From Candidatus Eiseniibacteriota bacterium (GTDB taxonomy: Bacteria > Eisenbacteria > RBG-16-71-46 > CAVPCR01): a stretch of 64,000 nucleotides of DNA. Every line of letters starts with the position of its first letter. Positions within the stretch are counted from its first letter, which is position 1. The stretch lies in assembly GCA_963823555.1 (NCBI GenBank), contig CAWGMA010000001.1, positions 608,001-672,000 on the forward strand, given 5' to 3'. Shown here piece after piece: positions 29,631 to 43,253 of this stretch. Below the pieces are notes generated by a model, which made no database searches, had not been told where the DNA came from, and saw only the letters and a program-made list of their open reading frames with translations. Both the position numbers and the translations under genes were made by a program.

Positions 29631-29684
29631 GCGCCAGGGTTCGTGCCCGGGTCAGAGACTGGTCTCTCACAGGGGGTAAACGGA

Positions 29685-30149
29685 ATGGCGGCTCGTAAGA
29701 AGGCCACGCGCAAGAAGGCCACGCGCAAGAAGGCCACGCGCAAGAAGGTTACGCGCAAGGCTGTGCGCAAGAAGGCAGTGCGCCGGAAGGTTGCGCGCAA
29801 GGCTGTGCGCAAGAAGGCAGTGCGTCGGAAGGTTGCGCGCAAGGCTGTGCGCAAGAAGGCCACCCGCAAGAAGGTTGCGCGCAAGGCTGTGCGCAAGAAG
29901 GCCACCCGGAAGGCAGTGCGCCGGAAGGTTGCGCGCAAGGCTGTGCGCAAGAAGGCCACCCGGAAGGCAGTGCGCCGGAAGGTTGCGCGCAAGGCTGTGC
30001 GCAAGAAGGCCACCCGGAAGGCAGTGCGCCGGAAGGTTGCCCGCAAGGCAATCGCCAAGAAGGCCACGCGCAAGAAGGCCACGCGCAAGAAGGCCACTCG
30101 CAAGAAGAAGGAACTGGCAGCCGAGCTTCCTTCGATCTTCACCATGTAG
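29685..30149 (+). CDS. Histone H1-like/Hc2-like basic repeat protein (154 aa)
   Basis: Almost wholly K/R/A/V/T repeats (TRKKA, RKAVR, RRKVA); short ELAAELPSIFTM tail. Confidence 0.8.
   Translation: MAARKKATRKKATRKKATRKKVTRKAVRKKAVRRKVARKAVRKKAVRRKVARKAVRKKATRKKVARKAVRKKATRKAVRRKVARKAVRKKATRKAVRRKVARKAVRKKATRKAVRRKVARKAIAKKATRKKATRKKATRKKKELAAELPSIFTM
29695..30110 (+). repeat. Coding tandem repeats (15, 42 and 54 bp units)
   Basis: AAGGCCACGCGCAAG units at both ends; 14-aa RKAVRKKAVRRKVA x2; 18-aa ARKAVRKKATRKAVRRKV x3. Confidence 0.9.
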
Positions 30150-33369: not shown

Positions 33370-35535
33370 CTATTGCGGTTGCTTGAACAGGTCCGGGGGC
33401 AGCTCGGGGTTGATCTCGATCGCGCGCAGTTGCGACTCGCTGGAGTACTCCCCATCCATGTAGGTAGCGCTGATGAACGGTACGAAGACTCCCTCTACGG
33501 GCCGGTAGTCCGTGAAGAGCTCCTCGATGTTCACCGTTCCGTTGTCGATGAGTCGTGATGTGACCCGCTTGACGACTTGACGTGACTGGGGGTGCAAGTA
33601 ATAGCGAGCCCAGTAGCCGTCGGGCGATGTGATCTGGAACCCATCCAGGGTGGTCCCGGCGACGGCCTGAGGATCGACGAGAAAGATGTTCGCACCGGGC
33701 TGGCCATAGCGATGAAAGGCGCGGAAACCGTCGAGCCACATGCGCCCGACGAGATCCTGGCGCCGCCACTCGGGCAAGTCCGTGTTCTTTCCCATCTGCT
33801 GGCGCCAGGCTCGAGTCCCGTTCAGTGTTTGCACCAGCCCCTCACCCTGTAGCGGCCCCACTCGGAGCTGCTCGCGCATTTGATCGGGAAACTTGACGGA
33901 GAGCCGACGCTCACCGGCAATGATCTGTCCTCCGGGCCGCACGAAGAGCGTTTCCACCTCGGCATAGCTCTCGACTCGTTCGATCGCCTCGAAGCCGCCC
34001 TTGGCTTCGATGGCGGCCACCAGGAGCTCCTCGCCTTGAGCCGTGGCGGCGGCGCTCGGCTGCTTGAGGAGCGGGTCGGGCTCCTTGGTCAGCAGGCGGC
34101 CGGTGATGACGGTGAAGACATCGGCATCGTGGCCCTCGATTCCCGCCGCGGCCAGGTCCGCGGCGAGGGCGCTGTTGCGGCCGTGGGCGATCCACACGCG
34201 CCGTTCCGCGGCGAGGAGTTCGCGCCAGTGCGCATTGACCTGTTGGCGATCAAGCGCCGCGAGCGCCGCGCCCGGGTCCTCGATCGCGGCCAGGGGCTGC
34301 CCGGCGAAGGTGAGCCCCGGGGCTTCGAACATGCGTGCCTCGGGCGTCTCGTAGCGCAGGGCCAGGGCGGCTGACCGCGCGCTCACGGTGCCGGTGAAGG
34401 CTTCCTCGGATAGACCCGAGGTCGCCAGATCATCCAGAGCGCCGTCGATCTCCTGAATCGTGCGGGCCACGAGGTCGTGAGGGATGGCGACCTCTATCGT
34501 GAGCTCGCTCCCGCGGGCGCTGGCGCGCAGCTGGGTGCGGTACCGATATCCCATGGGATGGGTTGCCGCCAGGGCAGCAATCAGGTCTTCGAATCGAGAG
34601 CTTCCGATCACCTGATGGAGGAGCTGGATCTCGAGGAAGTCAGGATCCTCGCGCCCCGGGCCGGTGAAACCGCAGAGGATGAGAGCCGAGAGCGCATCGG
34701 GATCGTCGATCACGGTCACACCGGGCCGGGCGGGCCGGTCGGCCGCATGGCCCCAGACCGGCGAACCCAGATCGCCTGCAGGCCAGCTGCCGAACTGGCG
34801 CTCGGCCGCCGCCTGGACCGCCTCCGGTTCGATGGCTCCAGCGACGGTGAGGATGGCGTTGGCCGGCCGGTAGTAGTCGCGATGGAACGCCTCCACATCG
34901 CCCGGCATGATGCTGAGGATCGTGGGAAATCGCGCCGAGAAACCCAGGGGCCGCCGGTCGCCATAGAGGAGGGCGCCCATGGCCTCTCGCGATACCAGGT
35001 CCGCAGAGCTGCGCGTTTGCAGGAGCTTGAGCAGCGCTTCCCGCTTGAGCGCGGGGGTGGCCAGGAACGGGTCATCCTCGGCGGGGATCGCCGCCCGCAA
35101 CACCGCGAGGAGCGGGTCGAGATCCTCGGGCAGGGCGCTGGTCGCGAAGACGGCATGGTCGGTGGTGACGTCCGTGCTCCAGTCGGGGGCCATGTAGGTC
35201 TTTCCCACCTCACCCCGGGTCAGGGCCTGGCGCACGCGCAGATGATCGAGAGTGGCGGCCAGGTCCGCGAGCCCTTCCTTGCCCCTCGGGTTGTGCACCC
35301 ACCCAGCAGCAATCCACAGGCCGGCGGTGATCTTGGACGCCGCCTCGTCCTTGAGCACGAGGATGCGAAGGCCGTTCTGGAGCTGATGCTGCACGATCGA
35401 TGGCCCGGCGGTGGTGGCGGTCTGACCGCGCGCGGCAGCCGGGATCAGGGCCGCGATGAGAACGAGAACGGCAAGGCCCCCAGAGATCGTCGCAGCGACG
35501 AGGCGCGGCGCGAAGCGGTGCTTGAACATCGGCAT
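33370..35535 (-). CDS. M16 peptidase-like non-catalytic subunit with extra C-terminal domain
   Basis: LQNGLRIL, FHRDYYRPANA; GLADLAA replaces HxxEH; extra ~220-aa domain. Confidence 0.75.
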   Translation of the reverse strand: MPMFKHRFAPRLVAATISGGLAVLVLIAALIPAAARGQTATTAGPSIVQHQLQNGLRILVLKDEAASKITAGLWIAAGWVHNPRGKEGLADLAATLDHLRVRQALTRGEVGKTYMAPDWSTDVTTDHAVFATSALPEDLDPLLAVLRAAIPAEDDPFLATPALKREALLKLLQTRSSADLVSREAMGALLYGDRRPLGFSARFPTILSIMPGDVEAFHRDYYRPANAILTVAGAIEPEAVQAAAERQFGSWPAGDLGSPVWGHAADRPARPGVTVIDDPDALSALILCGFTGPGREDPDFLEIQLLHQVIGSSRFEDLIAALAATHPMGYRYRTQLRASARGSELTIEVAIPHDLVARTIQEIDGALDDLATSGLSEEAFTGTVSARSAALALRYETPEARMFEAPGLTFAGQPLAAIEDPGAALAALDRQQVNAHWRELLAAERRVWIAHGRNSALAADLAAAGIEGHDADVFTVITGRLLTKEPDPLLKQPSAAATAQGEELLVAAIEAKGGFEAIERVESYAEVETLFVRPGGQIIAGERRLSVKFPDQMREQLRVGPLQGEGLVQTLNGTRAWRQQMGKNTDLPEWRRQDLVGRMWLDGFRAFHRYGQPGANIFLVDPQAVAGTTLDGFQITSPDGYWARYYLHPQSRQVVKRVTSRLIDNGTVNIEELFTDYRPVEGVFVPFISATYMDGEYSSESQLRAIEINPELPPDLFKQPQ

Positions 35536-35542
35536 CGGTTCC

Positions 35543-36880
35543 TCATTCGGGCTCGGCGCTCGTGCTCTCACCCGGAGCTGGGGCGAACACGAGGCTCACG
35601 GCGGCCTCTGGTTGCAGATAGGTGCGAGCAAAGCGAGTGCAGTCGTCCGATCCAAGGGCAACGAGATGTGCGCCAGGGACCGACTCGTCCCCGGGAGACT
35701 CGCTTTTCGCCATGTAGTCCTGCGCGGCGGCGGCGGCACGGGCGCTCACGGTCCCGGACAGGGTCGCATCCGCTAGCCGCAATTGTTCACGCGATGTAGC
35801 AATAAGCTGCTCATCGATGGCCTCCACCACGAGGGGAAGGGCGTTGATCAGTCGGTCGAGAGCCGTGTCGGGGTCGGCTCCGGGATCCAGGCGGGCAGCC
35901 ACGGTGAGCAGTCCGATGCTCTGATCGAGGGCGGCGCTCACCGCCACCGCCGGCGGTCCGCCATCCCGCACCGCTTCGCGGAGGATGGGGGCGGCGCCCT
36001 GATTGATCACGGCGTGGACGAGACGGGACAGCGTGGCGTCAGCTTCCCCGAGGCGGGGCACGCGGTATCCGGCGGCCACCGTGGGCGAACCGCGTCCCGG
36101 CACGAGGCTCCGGCGTTCCGCGGGCAGTGGAGGTAACGCCGGCAGTGGGGACCGCACCGCGCCTGTGGACGGTATCGGCCCGAAGTGATGCCGGGCCGCG
36201 GCCAGGATGGAATCCGCAACGACGCCGCCGGCGACCACCAGCATGGCCCGGTCGGGTCCGTAATGGCGCGAGTAGAAGGCGCGGCAGAGCTCGGGATCCG
36301 CGGGGTCCAGGTCGGTGGCCTTGGGCGCAAGAGCGAAGGGGTGATCGGGAAACGCGAGCGGGCGGAGCAGGTCCCCCAGGTCGCCGACAGTGAGCGGCTG
36401 CCGCCCCCGCGCCACCTGCTCCAGCCGGATGTCATCGAGTGCCTGGGCGACCGCAGCGCGATCGAGCTTCAAGCCGCGCATGCGGTCGGCTTCCAGGGCG
36501 ATGATGCGGTTGACATGGAGGAGCGAGATGTCGGTCTCGAATGCCGTCCAGTTCGACGTGGTCATGGACTGGCTCCGGCCTCCGAGCGCCGCCACGGCCT
36601 CGTCCCAGTCGGGCACGTCCTGCGTGCCGGAGAACATGAGATGCTCGAAGAGGTGAGCATAGCCGAACGTCCCAGGCTCTTCATCGCGCGATCCCGTGAG
36701 ATACCAGACCAGGACCGCCGCTACCTCCCGCCCAGGTTCAGGGAGGATGAGCACCTCGAGTCCGTTGTCGAGGCGCTCGCTCTCGAGAACCGGCACCGCC
36801 GCCGCGCCCTGCCGGCTAGAGAGCGTAGCCGTCATGACTGAAGCGGCGATGGCGAGCGCTATGAAGGCCGATCGTGACAT
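35543..36880 (-). CDS. M16 (pitrilysin/insulinase) zinc peptidase
   Basis: Signal peptide, LDNGLEV, GYAHLFEHLMFSGT (HxxEH), LEADRM. Confidence 0.88.
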   Translation of the reverse strand: MSRSAFIALAIAASVMTATLSSRQGAAAVPVLESERLDNGLEVLILPEPGREVAAVLVWYLTGSRDEEPGTFGYAHLFEHLMFSGTQDVPDWDEAVAALGGRSQSMTTSNWTAFETDISLLHVNRIIALEADRMRGLKLDRAAVAQALDDIRLEQVARGRQPLTVGDLGDLLRPLAFPDHPFALAPKATDLDPADPELCRAFYSRHYGPDRAMLVVAGGVVADSILAAARHHFGPIPSTGAVRSPLPALPPLPAERRSLVPGRGSPTVAAGYRVPRLGEADATLSRLVHAVINQGAAPILREAVRDGGPPAVAVSAALDQSIGLLTVAARLDPGADPDTALDRLINALPLVVEAIDEQLIATSREQLRLADATLSGTVSARAAAAAQDYMAKSESPGDESVPGAHLVALGSDDCTRFARTYLQPEAAVSLVFAPAPGESTSAEPE

Positions 36881-37032
36881 GTGGCTGTCTCGTGGGAGAC
36901 GGCGTGTGCAGCTTGATGGCGGTTTGCCCGCATGACAGTGACGAACGCGCGATGCTAGCAGGTCGTTGTGCCTGTCATCAACCGCTTTCCCCCCCCGCGC
37001 TCCCTCACGGCGTGGCTCCGGCACTTGCTGCC

Positions 37033-39003: not shown

Positions 39004-39023
39004 ATATTACTATATAGCAATAT
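39004..39023. promoter_or_regulatory. AT-rich 20-bp near-perfect palindrome (candidate operator)
   Basis: ATATTACTATATAGCAATAT, one mismatched pair. Confidence 0.45.
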
Positions 39024-39093
39024 ATGACTTTCAAGGCCCTGGCTGGAGGCCCCCATCCCGGGTGACGATCACCCCTTCTCAGCTCAATTCGTC

Positions 39094-39126
39094 TTGACAG
39101 GCTACCCGCCTGTGTAGCAAACTGTC
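39094..39126 (+). promoter_or_regulatory. Promoter with overlapping inverted repeats upstream of pseudo-dnaE/lexA
   Basis: TTGACA at 39094; ACAGGC-N5-GCCTGT (39097-39113); GCTAC-N8-GTAGC (39101-39118); weak -10. Confidence 0.45.
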
Positions 39127-39132
39127 GTCGAG

Positions 39133-42100
39133 ATGAGCATCCTACTCGATGTGCAGTCCGAGTTCAGCCTGCCCGAAGGAGGCGCCGCGGTCGAGGCGCT
39201 GGTCCGGCGTGCGGCCGCACTCGGGATCCGCGGTCTGGCCCTTGCCGACCGCGGCACCCTGGTGGCGGCTCCGGTCTTCGTGCGTGCCGCCCGCGCCGCG
39301 GGGATCGAGCCTCGGGTCGGCGTACGCTGCCGGGTGCAGGGAACATCGGGGCTCGATGTGCTGATCTTTCCCCGAGACGCCCGAGCCTGGCCCGTGCTCG
39401 CCGAGTTCGCCCGCCGGGGCGAGGTCGCCCCGCAGGAGCTGTCGACCATTGGCGGCGAGGCGGTTTCAGAGCAGCGCCTCCGGGTCCTTGCCGTGCTGCA
39501 CCCCGCCGCCGATCACGGGAGTGATGCGGAGATTCCAGCGCCGGGCGCGGCCCGTATCTCCGATCGCGATGCGGTATCCCGGCTCGCCACGGCCTTGCGC
39601 GCGCTGCGTTCCGCAGTCGGATCATCAGGACTCGCCCTCGCGCTGCCCGATCTTCGCGATTCCGCTTTGCTGGTCGAGCTGGGCCGTGACCTCGCCCTCC
39701 GTTGCGTGCTTGCACCGCCGGTTCACATCGTGGAGGTCGAGGATGCGCTGCTTCACCGTCTGCTCGTGATGATCCGGGGGGACCACGAGAGTGGAGGGAG
39801 CACGCCACGGCCCGGCCGACCGGTCTTCGAGCCCGGAGCGCTTGGTACCGCGGCATCCATCCTCGGCCGGGAGCTCGCTCCAGATGCGGAGCGTTTCTTC
39901 GCCGAGCTGGCGGTGCCAGACGAGTTCGTCGAGCCCCCGCTGCCAGACCTGGTGGCGGATGCGGAGGCGATCGCGGCGCTTCGTCATCGCGTCCTGGCCA
40001 TGTGTGCGGCTCAACGCCGGTTGCCGCCCGAATCCGTGCTCACTGCGGAGCTCGAAGCGATCGCCCGCCGCGGGGCTCTGGTTCCTCTGGCGAAGCTGGC
40101 CGAAGCGCTGCGGGCGCTCGGCGATCGGGTGCACCTGGGTGTGGATCCGGGATGGTGCGAAAGCTGGGTGGGCTGGGCTCTGGGCCTGACCACGGCGCCA
40201 CCGCGCGTGGCTGCTGCTCCGCCGGGCTGGGTCGATGGCCATGGTCCGCTGCCGCCTGTCACCGTCGAGATGGGTGAAGCAGGTGCGCGTGCCCTGCTCG
40301 CCCTGCTCGAGATCGCCGGAGCGCAGGAGCCCCGGGTCGCGATCCGGCTCGGTCCCGGGGAGGCCGTGCGCTGGTTGGCCACGGAGCGCGGATACGATTC
40401 CTCCTCGTTACGGCGGATCGCGGCTCTGGTGGCCGGCCGATCGCCGGCCCGGGAGCGGGCGCCCGCAGGATCCCGGAGGCTCGTCGCCGTGGCTGCGCAG
40501 CTCGCCGGGCGCATCATCGATCTGGCCGGTGACGCCACCATTCGCGTCTGGTCGCCGCTCTCGATAGCTGGGCGGGAGATTGATCGACTCACCGCCGATG
40601 CGACCGCGGCCGGCGGGTTGGCAGTGGGCGTCCGCTCCACACCGACTCTCTCGCTCCTCGAGCGGGCGGCCGTGAGTGGTCGCCGGTTGGCCGCGGGCGG
40701 TGCCGAACCGGTTCCCTGGTCGGAGCTGGCGGACCTACTGGCCGGACCTCTGGCCGGACGCGGGGGGGCCGCTTTCGCCCACTTGCTCCGCCAACGTCAG
40801 CCGGCCACGGTCCCCGATCTGGCGCGCGCTCTCGCTCTCGCCCGCCGCGCCCCCGATGCGCCGGCCCCGCATGTGCCCCAGATGACCGGGAGGGAAGCGC
40901 CTGCGTCTCCCGCGCGCCCCGGCACGCGCCCGGAGATCCTCTTCCATTCCGATGCCTCGTCTGCGTTGCGGCGCGCGGGAGTGGGGGAAGAGACGGCCGG
41001 CGAGCTGCTGCGCCGCGCGGCTGAAGGACGCGGTGGTCCGATGGCGGCGATGAGAGCCGATCTCGTCCGCGATCTCGAAGCGGCTGGCGGGTCCGGAGAA
41101 CGAGCCGAGGCGATCCTCGGCGCTCTTGTGCGCATCGTCCCGCATCTCGAGAGCGAGGGGCCGTGGCTCGCCCGGGCGCAGGCCCTTTCGCTGCTCGCCG
41201 ATCTTGCCGCACGCTCGCCGGAGGTCCTGGCACCGGCCATGGCGGATCTCCTTCCCGATCGACTGCCGTCCATCACAACCTGGGCCAAGCCGCTCAAGAT
41301 CGGCTTTCTCCGCCCTGATCTGAACTCGAGCGCCGTTGATTCCCGGGCCAGTGGCGCCCACGGCGAGACGAGGCTCATCCGGCTGGGGCTCCTTCACCTG
41401 CCGGGCGTGGACCGTGCCACCGCCGAGGTCCTGGCGGGCCTGCGCGCCGAGGCCCCGTTCTCCGATCGTGAGGATGTCGTGCGCCGGCTTCGCCACCGGA
41501 TCCCGGAGCAGCGGCTGCGCGCACTGCTCGGGAATGCCGCTCGTGGGGAGATGATCGCGGGGCAGGAAGCCGGATCGAGACCCAGCATGGCGTTGCGAGC
41601 GCAGCGCGAGCGCGTATCCGCACGCCGTTCCATCCATCCCCCGCGCCGCGGTCACGCCACCGTCGAACCCCTGGGAGATGCCATGCAGTTCGAGCTCTTT
41701 TCCGGACCCGCGGAGCGCCAGCGCATCTACACACCGACCCTGGCGCGCCACGGCATTCTGCGACTCGATCGGGTGGTGGCCACAGCGGAGGGAAGCCGTG
41801 TGCGGACCGTGGGTGTGATCCGCAGTCTGAGTGGCCTCGTGACCCGGGCTGGAAGGCGACTGGCTCGCGGGAGCCTGGAGGATGGTGGCGGCGCTGTCGA
41901 TCTCTTGCTCCTGCCCACGCTCTTCGACACCGCCGAGGATGTTCCGCTCGGCCGGCCGGTCGTGGTGGCGGGCCGCGTGAGCTTGCGCGAGGGCCGAGTC
42001 GAGCTCGTCGTCGAGAGCGCCATTCCACTCGAGCTCCTGGCTCAGGTGGAACAACCGCCGCTCGAGATTCTCTTGCCGCAAGGGTTTCGCCGCCTGCGCG

Positions 42101-42345
42101 CCCTCAAGCTGCGCTTGCTGAAGAGCCCGGGGCGATCGCCAGTGCACGTGCGCGCGCGATCCGGTGAACGAGCCCAGGTGGCAGCTCTTGGCCTGGGCCG
42201 CCTCGGAGTGACGGTGGATGATGGTCTGCTCGAGGACCTGAGGGTCCTTGTCGGCTCGGAGAGCGTGCGGCTCGTTGGCCCCGCTGGCGAGCGGGCAGCA
42301 CCGATGACAGAGACGGATCTACGCACCGCGGCTGGTGCGGCCTGA
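39133..42345 (+). CDS. Full-length, catalytically degenerate DNA polymerase III alpha (DnaE) homolog
   Basis: PHP-like N-terminus (DVQSEFSL, LALADRG, GIEPRVG), PDLNSS, HhH (IRLGLLHLPGV), QFELF, OB fold, C-terminal domain; catalytic Asp motifs replaced. Confidence 0.8.
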   Translation: MSILLDVQSEFSLPEGGAAVEALVRRAAALGIRGLALADRGTLVAAPVFVRAARAAGIEPRVGVRCRVQGTSGLDVLIFPRDARAWPVLAEFARRGEVAPQELSTIGGEAVSEQRLRVLAVLHPAADHGSDAEIPAPGAARISDRDAVSRLATALRALRSAVGSSGLALALPDLRDSALLVELGRDLALRCVLAPPVHIVEVEDALLHRLLVMIRGDHESGGSTPRPGRPVFEPGALGTAASILGRELAPDAERFFAELAVPDEFVEPPLPDLVADAEAIAALRHRVLAMCAAQRRLPPESVLTAELEAIARRGALVPLAKLAEALRALGDRVHLGVDPGWCESWVGWALGLTTAPPRVAAAPPGWVDGHGPLPPVTVEMGEAGARALLALLEIAGAQEPRVAIRLGPGEAVRWLATERGYDSSSLRRIAALVAGRSPARERAPAGSRRLVAVAAQLAGRIIDLAGDATIRVWSPLSIAGREIDRLTADATAAGGLAVGVRSTPTLSLLERAAVSGRRLAAGGAEPVPWSELADLLAGPLAGRGGAAFAHLLRQRQPATVPDLARALALARRAPDAPAPHVPQMTGREAPASPARPGTRPEILFHSDASSALRRAGVGEETAGELLRRAAEGRGGPMAAMRADLVRDLEAAGGSGERAEAILGALVRIVPHLESEGPWLARAQALSLLADLAARSPEVLAPAMADLLPDRLPSITTWAKPLKIGFLRPDLNSSAVDSRASGAHGETRLIRLGLLHLPGVDRATAEVLAGLRAEAPFSDREDVVRRLRHRIPEQRLRALLGNAARGEMIAGQEAGSRPSMALRAQRERVSARRSIHPPRRGHATVEPLGDAMQFELFSGPAERQRIYTPTLARHGILRLDRVVATAEGSRVRTVGVIRSLSGLVTRAGRRLARGSLEDGGGAVDLLLLPTLFDTAEDVPLGRPVVVAGRVSLREGRVELVVESAIPLELLAQVEQPPLEILLPQGFRRLRALKLRLLKSPGRSPVHVRARSGERAQVAALGLGRLGVTVDDGLLEDLRVLVGSESVRLVGPAGERAAPMTETDLRTAAGAA

Positions 42346-42369
42346 TCAGCCTGACCGGATGGAGGAATC

Positions 42370-43008
42370 ATGAGAGAAGATCTGACCGATCGCCAGCGGG
42401 AGGTTTACGACTTCCTCGTCGGCTTCTGGCAATCTCGCGGTTATCCGCCATCGATTCGCGAGGTGGCGAGTCATTTCGGATTCCGCTCGACACGCGCAGT
42501 CGTTGACCACCTCGGTGCGCTCGAGCGCAAGGGGTGGATCGTGCGCACGCGGGAACGCTCGCGCGCGATCGAGTTCCCCCTGGCGCGGATCTCGGGAGGG
42601 AGCGCTGCCGTCAGGGAGTCCGATCAGGTCATGGTGCTCCCGGTCGTGGGCCGCATAGCCGCCGGCGAGCCCATTCTCGCCGTCGAGAACATTGTCGACG
42701 AGATCTCGCTCGATCGGTCCTGGGTGCGAGGCCAGCGCCCCTTCCTGCTCAAGGTCGTTGGGGATTCCATGCGCGACGCCGGGATCCTCGATGGGGATTA
42801 CGTCCTCGTGAATGGCGAGGACAGGGCCGACGATGGGGACATCGTGGCTGCGATCATCGAGGACGAGGCCACCGTCAAGCGGCTGCGCAAGAACCGCGGC
42901 GAGGTCCTGCTCGAGCCGGCGAACCCGGCCTACTCGCCGATCCCGGTGCGGAGCGACCAGTCGTTCCAGCTCGTGGGCAAGGTGATCGGCGTCTTCCGCA
43001 AGCTGTAG
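42370..43008 (+). CDS. lexA: SOS repressor LexA
   Basis: LTDRQ, PPSIRE, IAAG cleavage site, GDSM (Ser), ATVKR (Lys); GGAGG RBS. Confidence 0.96.
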   Translation: MREDLTDRQREVYDFLVGFWQSRGYPPSIREVASHFGFRSTRAVVDHLGALERKGWIVRTRERSRAIEFPLARISGGSAAVRESDQVMVLPVVGRIAAGEPILAVENIVDEISLDRSWVRGQRPFLLKVVGDSMRDAGILDGDYVLVNGEDRADDGDIVAAIIEDEATVKRLRKNRGEVLLEPANPAYSPIPVRSDQSFQLVGKVIGVFRKL

Positions 43009-43072: not shown

Positions 43073-43101
43073 TTGACGGCCTCGATCGCGGCCGCTATAG
43101 T
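43073..43101 (+). promoter_or_regulatory. sigma70 promoter of the tRNA gene
   Basis: TTGACG-17-TATAGT. Confidence 0.7.
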
Positions 43102-43175
43102 GCCTCTCCCTGCACTCGGGTGCGGCCCGTGCTCTGGCTTGCGGCCAGCGCTCCGAGTGGCACGCCAACCTCTTC

Positions 43176-43253
43176 GTCCCCATCGTCTAGCCTGGCCTAG
43201 GACACCGGCCTTTCACGCCGGTAACACGGGTTCAAATCCCGTTGGGGACACCA
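43176..43253 (+). tRNA. tRNA-Glu (anticodon TTC)
   Basis: GTCCCCA acceptor stem, CCGGC-CTTTCAC-GCCGG anticodon arm, GGTTCAAATCC, encoded CCA. Confidence 0.97.

Follow-up and report, generated by a model that had tools for sequence, protein, structure and literature searches.

A DnaE paralog that has lost its catalytic triad is maintained upstream of lexA in an order of Candidatus Eisenbacteria

Organization of the locus

A stretch of 64,000 nucleotides from a Candidatus Eiseniibacteriota bacterium (assembly GCA_963823555.1, contig CAWGMA010000001.1, positions 608,001 to 672,000 of the forward strand; referred to below as the window, with positions counted from its first letter) contains at 39133-42345, on the plus strand, a single unbroken reading frame of 1070 codons. 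Its product, P0001 (1070 aa), is a catalytically dead, full-length paralog of the replicative polymerase subunit DnaE. An intact lexA (42370-43008, plus strand) – the sole copy in the assembly – begins 24 nt past the stop codon and is preceded by a ribosome-binding site, GGAGG, at 42361: its product passes TIGR00498 (215.6 bits against a cut-off of 110.95) and retains the Ala-Gly cleavage site and the Ser and Lys motifs. A first-pass annotation, made from the letters alone, had described just this arrangement, and both the uninterrupted DnaE-like frame and the intact lexA stood up to profile comparison.

The assignment of P0001 to DnaE draws on several comparisons. Pfam matches are found to PHP (aa 7-69), HHH_6 (aa 723-798, E 3e-8) and the oligonucleotide-binding (OB) fold (aa 890-965, E 4e-7), and the same scan found neither the polymerase-core nor the finger models; against PRK05673, the curated DnaE model, P0001 scores 74 bits, far below the cut-off of 1002. 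Nonetheless, sequence matches in PDB are to Pol III alpha subunits, and alignment by hhalign of the family profile (19 sequences) to a profile of 51 DnaE proteins has a probability of 100 (E 9e-47) over 977 columns. The layout on the plus strand comprises a PHP domain (about aa 1-263; 39133-39921), a helix-hairpin-helix (HhH) region (41299-41526), an OB fold (41800-42027) whose basic loop GLVTRAGRRLA aligns with E. coli alpha (the OB fold aligns also with M. tuberculosis alpha) and a DnaE1-type C-terminal domain (42037-42276), which aligns to the end of 7pu7 and 5fku and which in DnaE1 binds tau. In an AlphaFold model for which family sequences alone were used (predicted local distance difference test, pLDDT, 75.9; predicted TM score 0.54), all of the top structural matches are Pol III alpha and PolC (Z 17-19), with a root-mean-square deviation of 13-20 Å that is high because the orientation of the domains is uncertain. 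P0001 is thus a homolog of C-family polymerases by fold and by its PHP-Pol3 core-(HhH)2-OB order; Pfam gives no match to the Y-family (IMS) domain. Portions of the gene, the D555 region among them, are also represented in contigs of two independent DNA runs; these show 0-1 differences and are free of gaps, and an assembly artefact is therefore unlikely.

Loss of catalytic residues

The motifs by which DnaE is recognized as an enzyme are present in position and degenerate in content. hhalign places Pro, Thr and Gly of P0001 on E. coli D401, D403 and D555, and MAFFT L-INS-i reproduces this register: the by-eye alignment of the first-pass annotation was correct, its motifs lie where it had put them, and no intact acidic triad emerges from either alignment. 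Both methods delimit three degenerate motifs on the plus strand: the GRGS motif, GVDPGWCESWVGWALGLT (40138-40191), in which Arg-Gly-Ser is lost; the palm motif LPPVTVEM (40249-40272), with D401 changed to Pro, D403 to Thr and D405 to Glu; and the palm motif AVGVRSTPTL (40621-40650), with K553 changed to Ala and D555 to Gly (Arg in seven of nine family members). Among the nine members in which the palm is present, Asp is retained at D401 in one and at D403 and D555 in none, and no member keeps more than one. The GRGS motif and the Arg, Lys and His residues of the fingers are gone. The PHP motif reads LLDVQS (39142-39159); eight of the nine canonical metal ligands are lost from P0001, and between none and two of nine are left across the family. 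Judged by these residues P0001 is dead both as a polymerase and as a proofreader.

The same genome encodes an intact dnaE1 (C1:696046-699525), 46 kb from the dead gene – the separate active copy that the first-pass annotation had wished to see confirmed – and a dinB-dnaE2 cassette (C1:1471882-1476328) in which the DnaE motifs are likewise intact. Searches of the genome for the recA and IMS families gave recA, one weak RecA-like match and three DinB-like genes.

Conservation and selection

Relatives (E<=1e-25) were sought in 206 genomes of the class, and were found in all five genomes of the order to which the window belongs. Six full-length database proteins share 47-59% identity with P0001, and a search of 1.84 billion representatives gave nine matches at E<=1e-30, all of them members of the P0001 family. 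The frame is free of internal stops in each of the five genomes and in the six database proteins. Nei-Gojobori ratios of nonsynonymous to synonymous change (dN/dS) for the dead DnaE are 0.19-0.35 (10 pairs), compared to 0.10-0.12 for lexA, 0.17 for recA, 0.105 for dnaN and 0.235 for DnaE2; these values are rough, because dS is 0.5-1.4 in high-GC DNA. The family evolves fast, but the gene is under purifying selection and is not a decaying pseudogene.

Conservation is unevenly spread along the protein. Across six relatives mean identity is 0.61 in both the OB fold and the C-terminal domain (as high as in any domain) and 0.19 in the linkers. The most conserved long segment is aa 191-232 (mean identity 0.76), at the end of the PHP domain; it contains the family signature EDALLHRLLVMIRGDHE (39739-39789, plus strand) and is present also in the shortened member from genome G003.

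The association with lexA is conserved as well. lexA lies directly downstream of the dead DnaE in all six loci with assembled downstream DNA (G000, the source genome, G001, G003, G004, L065 and L066), as it should if the linkage proposed by the first-pass annotation is real; three further contigs stop inside the dead gene and fall outside this count. The downstream copy is the only lexA match in G000, G001, G003 and G004, and in the G002 assembly lexA was not found. A metatranscriptome supplied one identical 241-nt contig at 41793-42033, against only 35-58 nt repeat matches in a 19.9-kb control stretch: a single RNA contig is not enough to demonstrate that the gene is expressed or co-transcribed.

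A candidate LexA operator in the conserved promoter

Upstream of the dead gene the promoter has a conserved order: TTGAC, a 16-bp element, a weak -10 and, about 9 nt later, the ATG. In the window (plus strand) these are a predicted -35 hexamer, TTGACA (39094-39099), whose first five letters, TTGAC, recur with unchanged spacing to the ATG in seven of seven distinct promoters; a candidate LexA operator, the degenerate 16-bp palindrome CTACCC-GCCT-GTGTAG (39102-39117); and a putative -10 hexamer, CAAACT (39118-39123), with an 18-bp spacer, which conservation points to and a consensus promoter scan does not call. The putative -10 position implies that the mRNA is nearly leaderless.

The operator matrix was built from recA and dinB promoters of G001-G004, in which seven sites were picked by eye from 17 upstream regions; eight regions, several of them intra-operon, showed no evident site. 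The source genome and all dead-DnaE promoters were excluded from training. With the symmetric matrix, the top site lies between -35 and -10 in all seven dead-DnaE promoters (scores 9.2-15.2), and between 3 and 28 of 2000 shuffles score as high as the boxes of these promoters. A score of 9 is attained by only 4 of 426 sigma70-like intergenic promoters, and one of 10.3 within 40 nt by 6 of 3543 genes. The held-out recA, dinB and dinB-dnaE2 promoters of the source genome rank 10, 13 and 16 of 3516. In the 300 nt before lexA, none of the seven loci has a site scoring at least 9. LexA boxes are described in PMC8565304 as lineage-specific palindromes, and in other orders 5 of 24 lexA promoters bear perfect palindromes with this layout (CTGCAC-N4-GTGCAG or CTGAAC-N4-GTTCAG).

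Given a 16-bp box between -35 and -10 in seven of seven promoters, the operon is probably LexA-controlled. The dead DnaE and lexA are likely to share one transcript that starts at a LexA-repressed promoter, and we infer that LexA autoregulates through the dead-DnaE promoter. A candidate LexA box is thereby available for a lineage that has not been cultured. That the box is a generic promoter element was rejected by the matrix controls, and its offset from the -35 varies in the 17 upstream regions; an inverted repeat, ACAGGC-N5-GCCTGT, was rejected as operator since it is not conserved in G002, G003, L066 and L068.

Two further observations concern the matrix. A second, weak box-like site (score 10.7) lies in an AT-rich stretch at 39010-39025 and may be a chance match or belong to the divergent gene. 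Strong boxes elsewhere in G000 suggest a candidate SOS regulon: six of them (C1:1129397, C1:1805420, C3:814468, C4:497424, C2:45004 and C2:318357) precede mraZ, a ribonucleotide reductase gene, Ku, a radical SAM gene and two long open reading frames (ORFs) without Pfam matches, but the high ranks include unrelated genes also.

Motifs retained outside the active sites

Two short motifs form conserved islands within the variable linkers. The first, QFELF (41686-41700, plus strand), is a putative clamp-binding motif in a poorly conserved linker that is modeled with pLDDT <50; a QxxLF motif occupies the position of the DnaE clamp motif, between HhH and OB, in 13 of the 14 members that possess the C-terminal half. 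Positions 1, 4 and 5 of QxxLF are given as the most important in PMC3919608, which also has the C-terminal domain binding tau. P0001 contains a DnaE1-type C-terminal domain by sequence match, with predicted tau binding.

The second island is the C-terminal AGAA (42331-42342, plus strand), a candidate ssrA-like degron for ClpXP. It follows a variable linker and ends 11 of the 14 members whose C-terminus is present, compared to only 2 of the 3543 called genes of the genome. The genome's own transfer-messenger RNA tag ends ALAA, a terminal Ala-Ala is named as the main ClpXP targeting signal in PMC7652416, and clpX was found in each of the five genomes tested. The clpX match in G000 (C1:1584657-1585421) is above the cut-off, yet spans only model positions 75-331 of 414.

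Relatives and origin

A second family of dead DnaE proteins occurs in f14, another family of the class (both of its genomes, plus P0160 and P0161); it is less diverged, about 800 aa long, and ends Q[LMF][DES][ML]PW. In G017 the gene directly precedes lexA (L099:1021-3432, G017:C39) and its promoter has box-like sites; in G039 (L142, L101) a contig break separates the dead DnaE from lexA, and a matching C-terminal end lies upstream of lexA.

In a further family of the class, f12, all five genomes, which are small, encode a second DnaE1-like gene (L136:6473-10024, L137, L138, L108, L109) with an intact triad, a C-terminal domain, DnaE2-like motif spellings and a QxELGL motif. This copy is the best non-family match of both dead families, and adjoins rarA. 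In three of three loci an outer-membrane-like gene and rarA precede it as they do the window gene; rarA was not seen in the flanks of G003 or G017 that were examined. The C-terminal signature ELxLPxGF is common to f12 copies and the P0001 family, and the family C-terminal profile gives 27-33 bits on four of five f12 copies against at most 19.4 on 13 canonical DnaE1s. The family PHP profile, on the other hand, favors canonical DnaE1 copies over f12, and in the loci read the f12 copies are not adjacent to lexA and no box was found.

The f12 second DnaE is a candidate active relative of the dead DnaE and may be its ortholog. Placement of f12 as sister has a FastTree support of 0.913 (with one extra long row) and is left open by IQ-TREE; the approximately unbiased (AU) test rejects neither an origin from f12 (p 0.38) nor one from DnaE2 (p 0.23). 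Origin as a recent duplicate of the order's own dnaE1 was rejected (AU test p 0.0011). The trees are quick trees only; support for joining the two dead families is 98 and 84, and long-branch attraction may be behind this grouping.

Another gene holds the place before lexA in seven of seven genomes of family f8: it encodes a helical protein of 114-173 aa without a Pfam family (L160:6681-7133, L156-L159, L161, L162). It has a terminal QxxLF clamp-type motif in six of the seven, and box-like half-sites upstream. Descent of the 150-aa protein from DnaE is a lead at most and is not supported by hhalign, which gives a probability of 0.1 with DnaE1 and of 0.2 with the P0001 family; neither a Pfam match nor longer homologs were found. 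No specific sequence link was found to a dead DnaE of Sumerlaeota (probably the top ESM Atlas cluster, 0.97): of the database matches of at least 850 aa outside the family, four miss one motif pattern and none misses both.

Proposed function and alternatives

We propose that the dead DnaE is a short-lived, SOS-induced placeholder that would occupy the seat of the polymerase on clamp and tau at damaged forks, a reading to which we give a probability of roughly 45%. LexA would bind the box between -35 and -10, as the phylogenetic footprint suggests, and damage would therefore induce the dead DnaE together with LexA. To judge from the parts retained, the protein would attach to the beta clamp through QFELF and to tau through its C-terminal domain, and HhH and OB would hold primed DNA; it would in this way compete with DnaE1, either pausing synthesis or keeping the primer end occupied until repair or takeover by a translesion polymerase. 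ClpXP, to judge from the tail, would clear it once LexA re-represses the operon. A precedent for such competition exists in vitro: catalytically dead Pol III* inhibits ongoing replication (PMC5419744, citing Yuan 2016).

Several observations weigh against this proposal. The G003 member has 719 aa and is without HhH, clamp motif and OB, while promoter, box and lexA link are retained: clamp docking is therefore not a universal reason for retention. The f14 proteins have no HhH, OB or C-terminal domain, and keep a clamp-like tail. AGAA is missing in G003, G004 and P0025. The best-conserved segment, aa 191-232, is not explained by a placeholder. The operator scores 10.3, which gives the gene rank 47 of 3516, and is therefore weak; the training sites were chosen by eye (7 of 17 regions), and several top matrix matches are not SOS genes. 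At the stated threshold none of the other 201 class genomes has a close relative. The first-pass annotation had interpreted the gene as a LexA-linked adaptor or decoy at the clamp or replisome: that it is dead, selected, linked to lexA and preceded by a LexA-type operator holds, but the adaptor or decoy role is a conjecture from the retained motifs, and the HhH-clamp-OB segment is lost from the G003 member.

A wider version of the placeholder proposal is possible but doubtful. It would make the protein a new arm of the SOS response – a replicase mimic, co-regulated with LexA and timed by ClpXP, that brakes or remodels the replisome through clamp and tau – which would have arisen when the lexA operon took in a second DnaE1-like polymerase (intact and syntenic in f12) that was then reduced stepwise, from 1070 to about 800 and 719 aa and possibly to the 150-aa f8 protein. 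If true, such a mimic would be the replication counterpart of SulA.

An adaptor role like that of ImuB seems to us on the unlikely side. The same box precedes dinB and dinB-dnaE2, and the dinB-dnaE2 cassettes of G000 and G001 have no recognized imuA or imuB; however, the gene persists in G003, which has an imuB-like gene with dnaE2, and in G004, which has an imuA-imuB-dnaE2 cassette. Nor does any polymerase gene adjoin it, and a tau-type C-terminal domain would be unneeded, since DnaE2, according to PMC3919608, never has one. As the first-pass annotation had remarked, imuA and imuB were not found among the annotated neighboring ORFs.

The selected function could instead reside on the PHP/palm surface, as a site for a hypothetical partner (a proofreader, RecA or LexA, for example), with clamp motif, OB and C-terminal domain as accessories. 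This would account for the conservation of aa 191-232, and the PHP and palm/finger remnants are the only parts common to the full-length, G003 and f14 forms. We consider it improbable: the segment is of low confidence in the structural model, and OB, C-terminal domain and clamp motif are likewise conserved in full-length members.

That the gene is a slowly decaying relic of a second polymerase, kept for its promoter and as the 5' part of the lexA operon, is very unlikely. The stem branch is very long (about 2.8 changes per site), the codon score is in the lowest 1% of long genes, the G003 member is truncated and dN/dS is about two to three times the lexA or dnaN value. Yet dN/dS is far below 1 and near that of active DnaE2, no frame is interrupted, short motifs are preserved amid variable linkers, and a deletion fusing promoter to lexA would abolish any positional need: the dN/dS and conservation results already largely refute decay. 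A new or relocated catalytic site, finally, is scarcely credible: D405 is Glu in 9/9 members, D403 is Glu in 7/9, and H208 and D217-H218-E219 are conserved, but P0001 has Thr at D403, the D555 position holds Arg, Gly or Thr, and the GRGS and finger residues are gone.

Comparison with known DnaE and SOS proteins

P0001 is a DnaE homolog that is not an active DnaE1, a DnaE2 or an ImuB. With DnaE1 (E. coli 5fku/2hnh, M. tuberculosis 7pu7, T. aquaticus 2hpi/4iqj) it shares the fold and the order PHP-palm-thumb-fingers-HhH-clamp motif-OB-C-terminal domain, but it lacks the catalytic triad, GRGS motif, finger dNTP residues and PHP ligands, and sits in a lexA operon. ImuB is likewise a polymerase homolog that is catalytically dead, bears a clamp motif and belongs to a LexA context; the dead DnaE, however, is of the C and not the Y family, has neither imuA nor dnaE2 as neighbor, carries a tau-type C-terminal domain and occurs in G003 and G004 alongside imuB-dnaE2 cassettes. 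DnaE2 (ImuC) is likewise a non-essential extra DnaE with a dead PHP domain, an SOS link and a similar dN/dS, but is active and without the C-terminal domain, whereas the dead DnaE is inactive and has one; a separate DnaE2 is encoded in the genome. DnaEX, the divergent extra DnaE copies of PMC3919608, is similar in being a strongly diverged additional copy; for it the part of that paper seen gives neither catalytic loss nor a link to lexA.

In the parts consulted, neither of two surveys describes a polymerase-dead DnaE: PMC3919608 holds the catalytic aspartates to be absolutely conserved across the C family, and PMC12926913, which covers Y-family proteins and PHP domains that are dead, names neither a DnaE without polymerase activity nor lexA or Eisenbacteria. 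Searches of open-access main texts on dead DnaE, dominant-negative DnaE and the LexA of Eisenbacteria yielded no description; the supplements of both surveys could list such proteins. The present analysis adds the dead DnaE in its full length, with its operator and its tail, as well as the f14 family and the syntenic copy that is intact.

That selection keeps a dead copy of full length in first place in a lexA operon points to a non-catalytic job for the replicase scaffold in the control of damage. With a natural decoy in place of an engineered mutant, SOS polymerase exchange and the control of fork pausing would become testable. The class, moreover, seems to contain DnaE forms that are intact, reduced in part and heavily reduced: a rare series for study of the passage from enzyme to pseudoenzyme.

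Other features

The neighbors of the dead gene are M16 peptidases, a GH43-like gene, rarA, lexA and tRNA-Glu. A tandem M16 peptidase pair (33370-37024) is divergent from it in G000, G001, G002 and at least three metagenome loci. Past lexA, at 43073-43253, lie a consensus sigma70 promoter and tRNA-Glu(TTC), with flanking genes that vary among relatives, a possible insertion site. A protein rich in Lys, Arg and Ala (29643-30149) contains KKATRKK repeats; its composition is histone-H1-like and it has no Pfam match at 1e-5.

Outside the window, the dnaE1 of G001 (L113, G001:C2) is split over several frames, probably through assembly errors. Locus L022 (G000:C1:1471882-1476513) is a cassette in which a box precedes an 84-aa ORF, a dinB-like gene and dnaE2, and is similar in G001 and G002: it resembles the DnaE2B-PolY modules described in PMC12926913.

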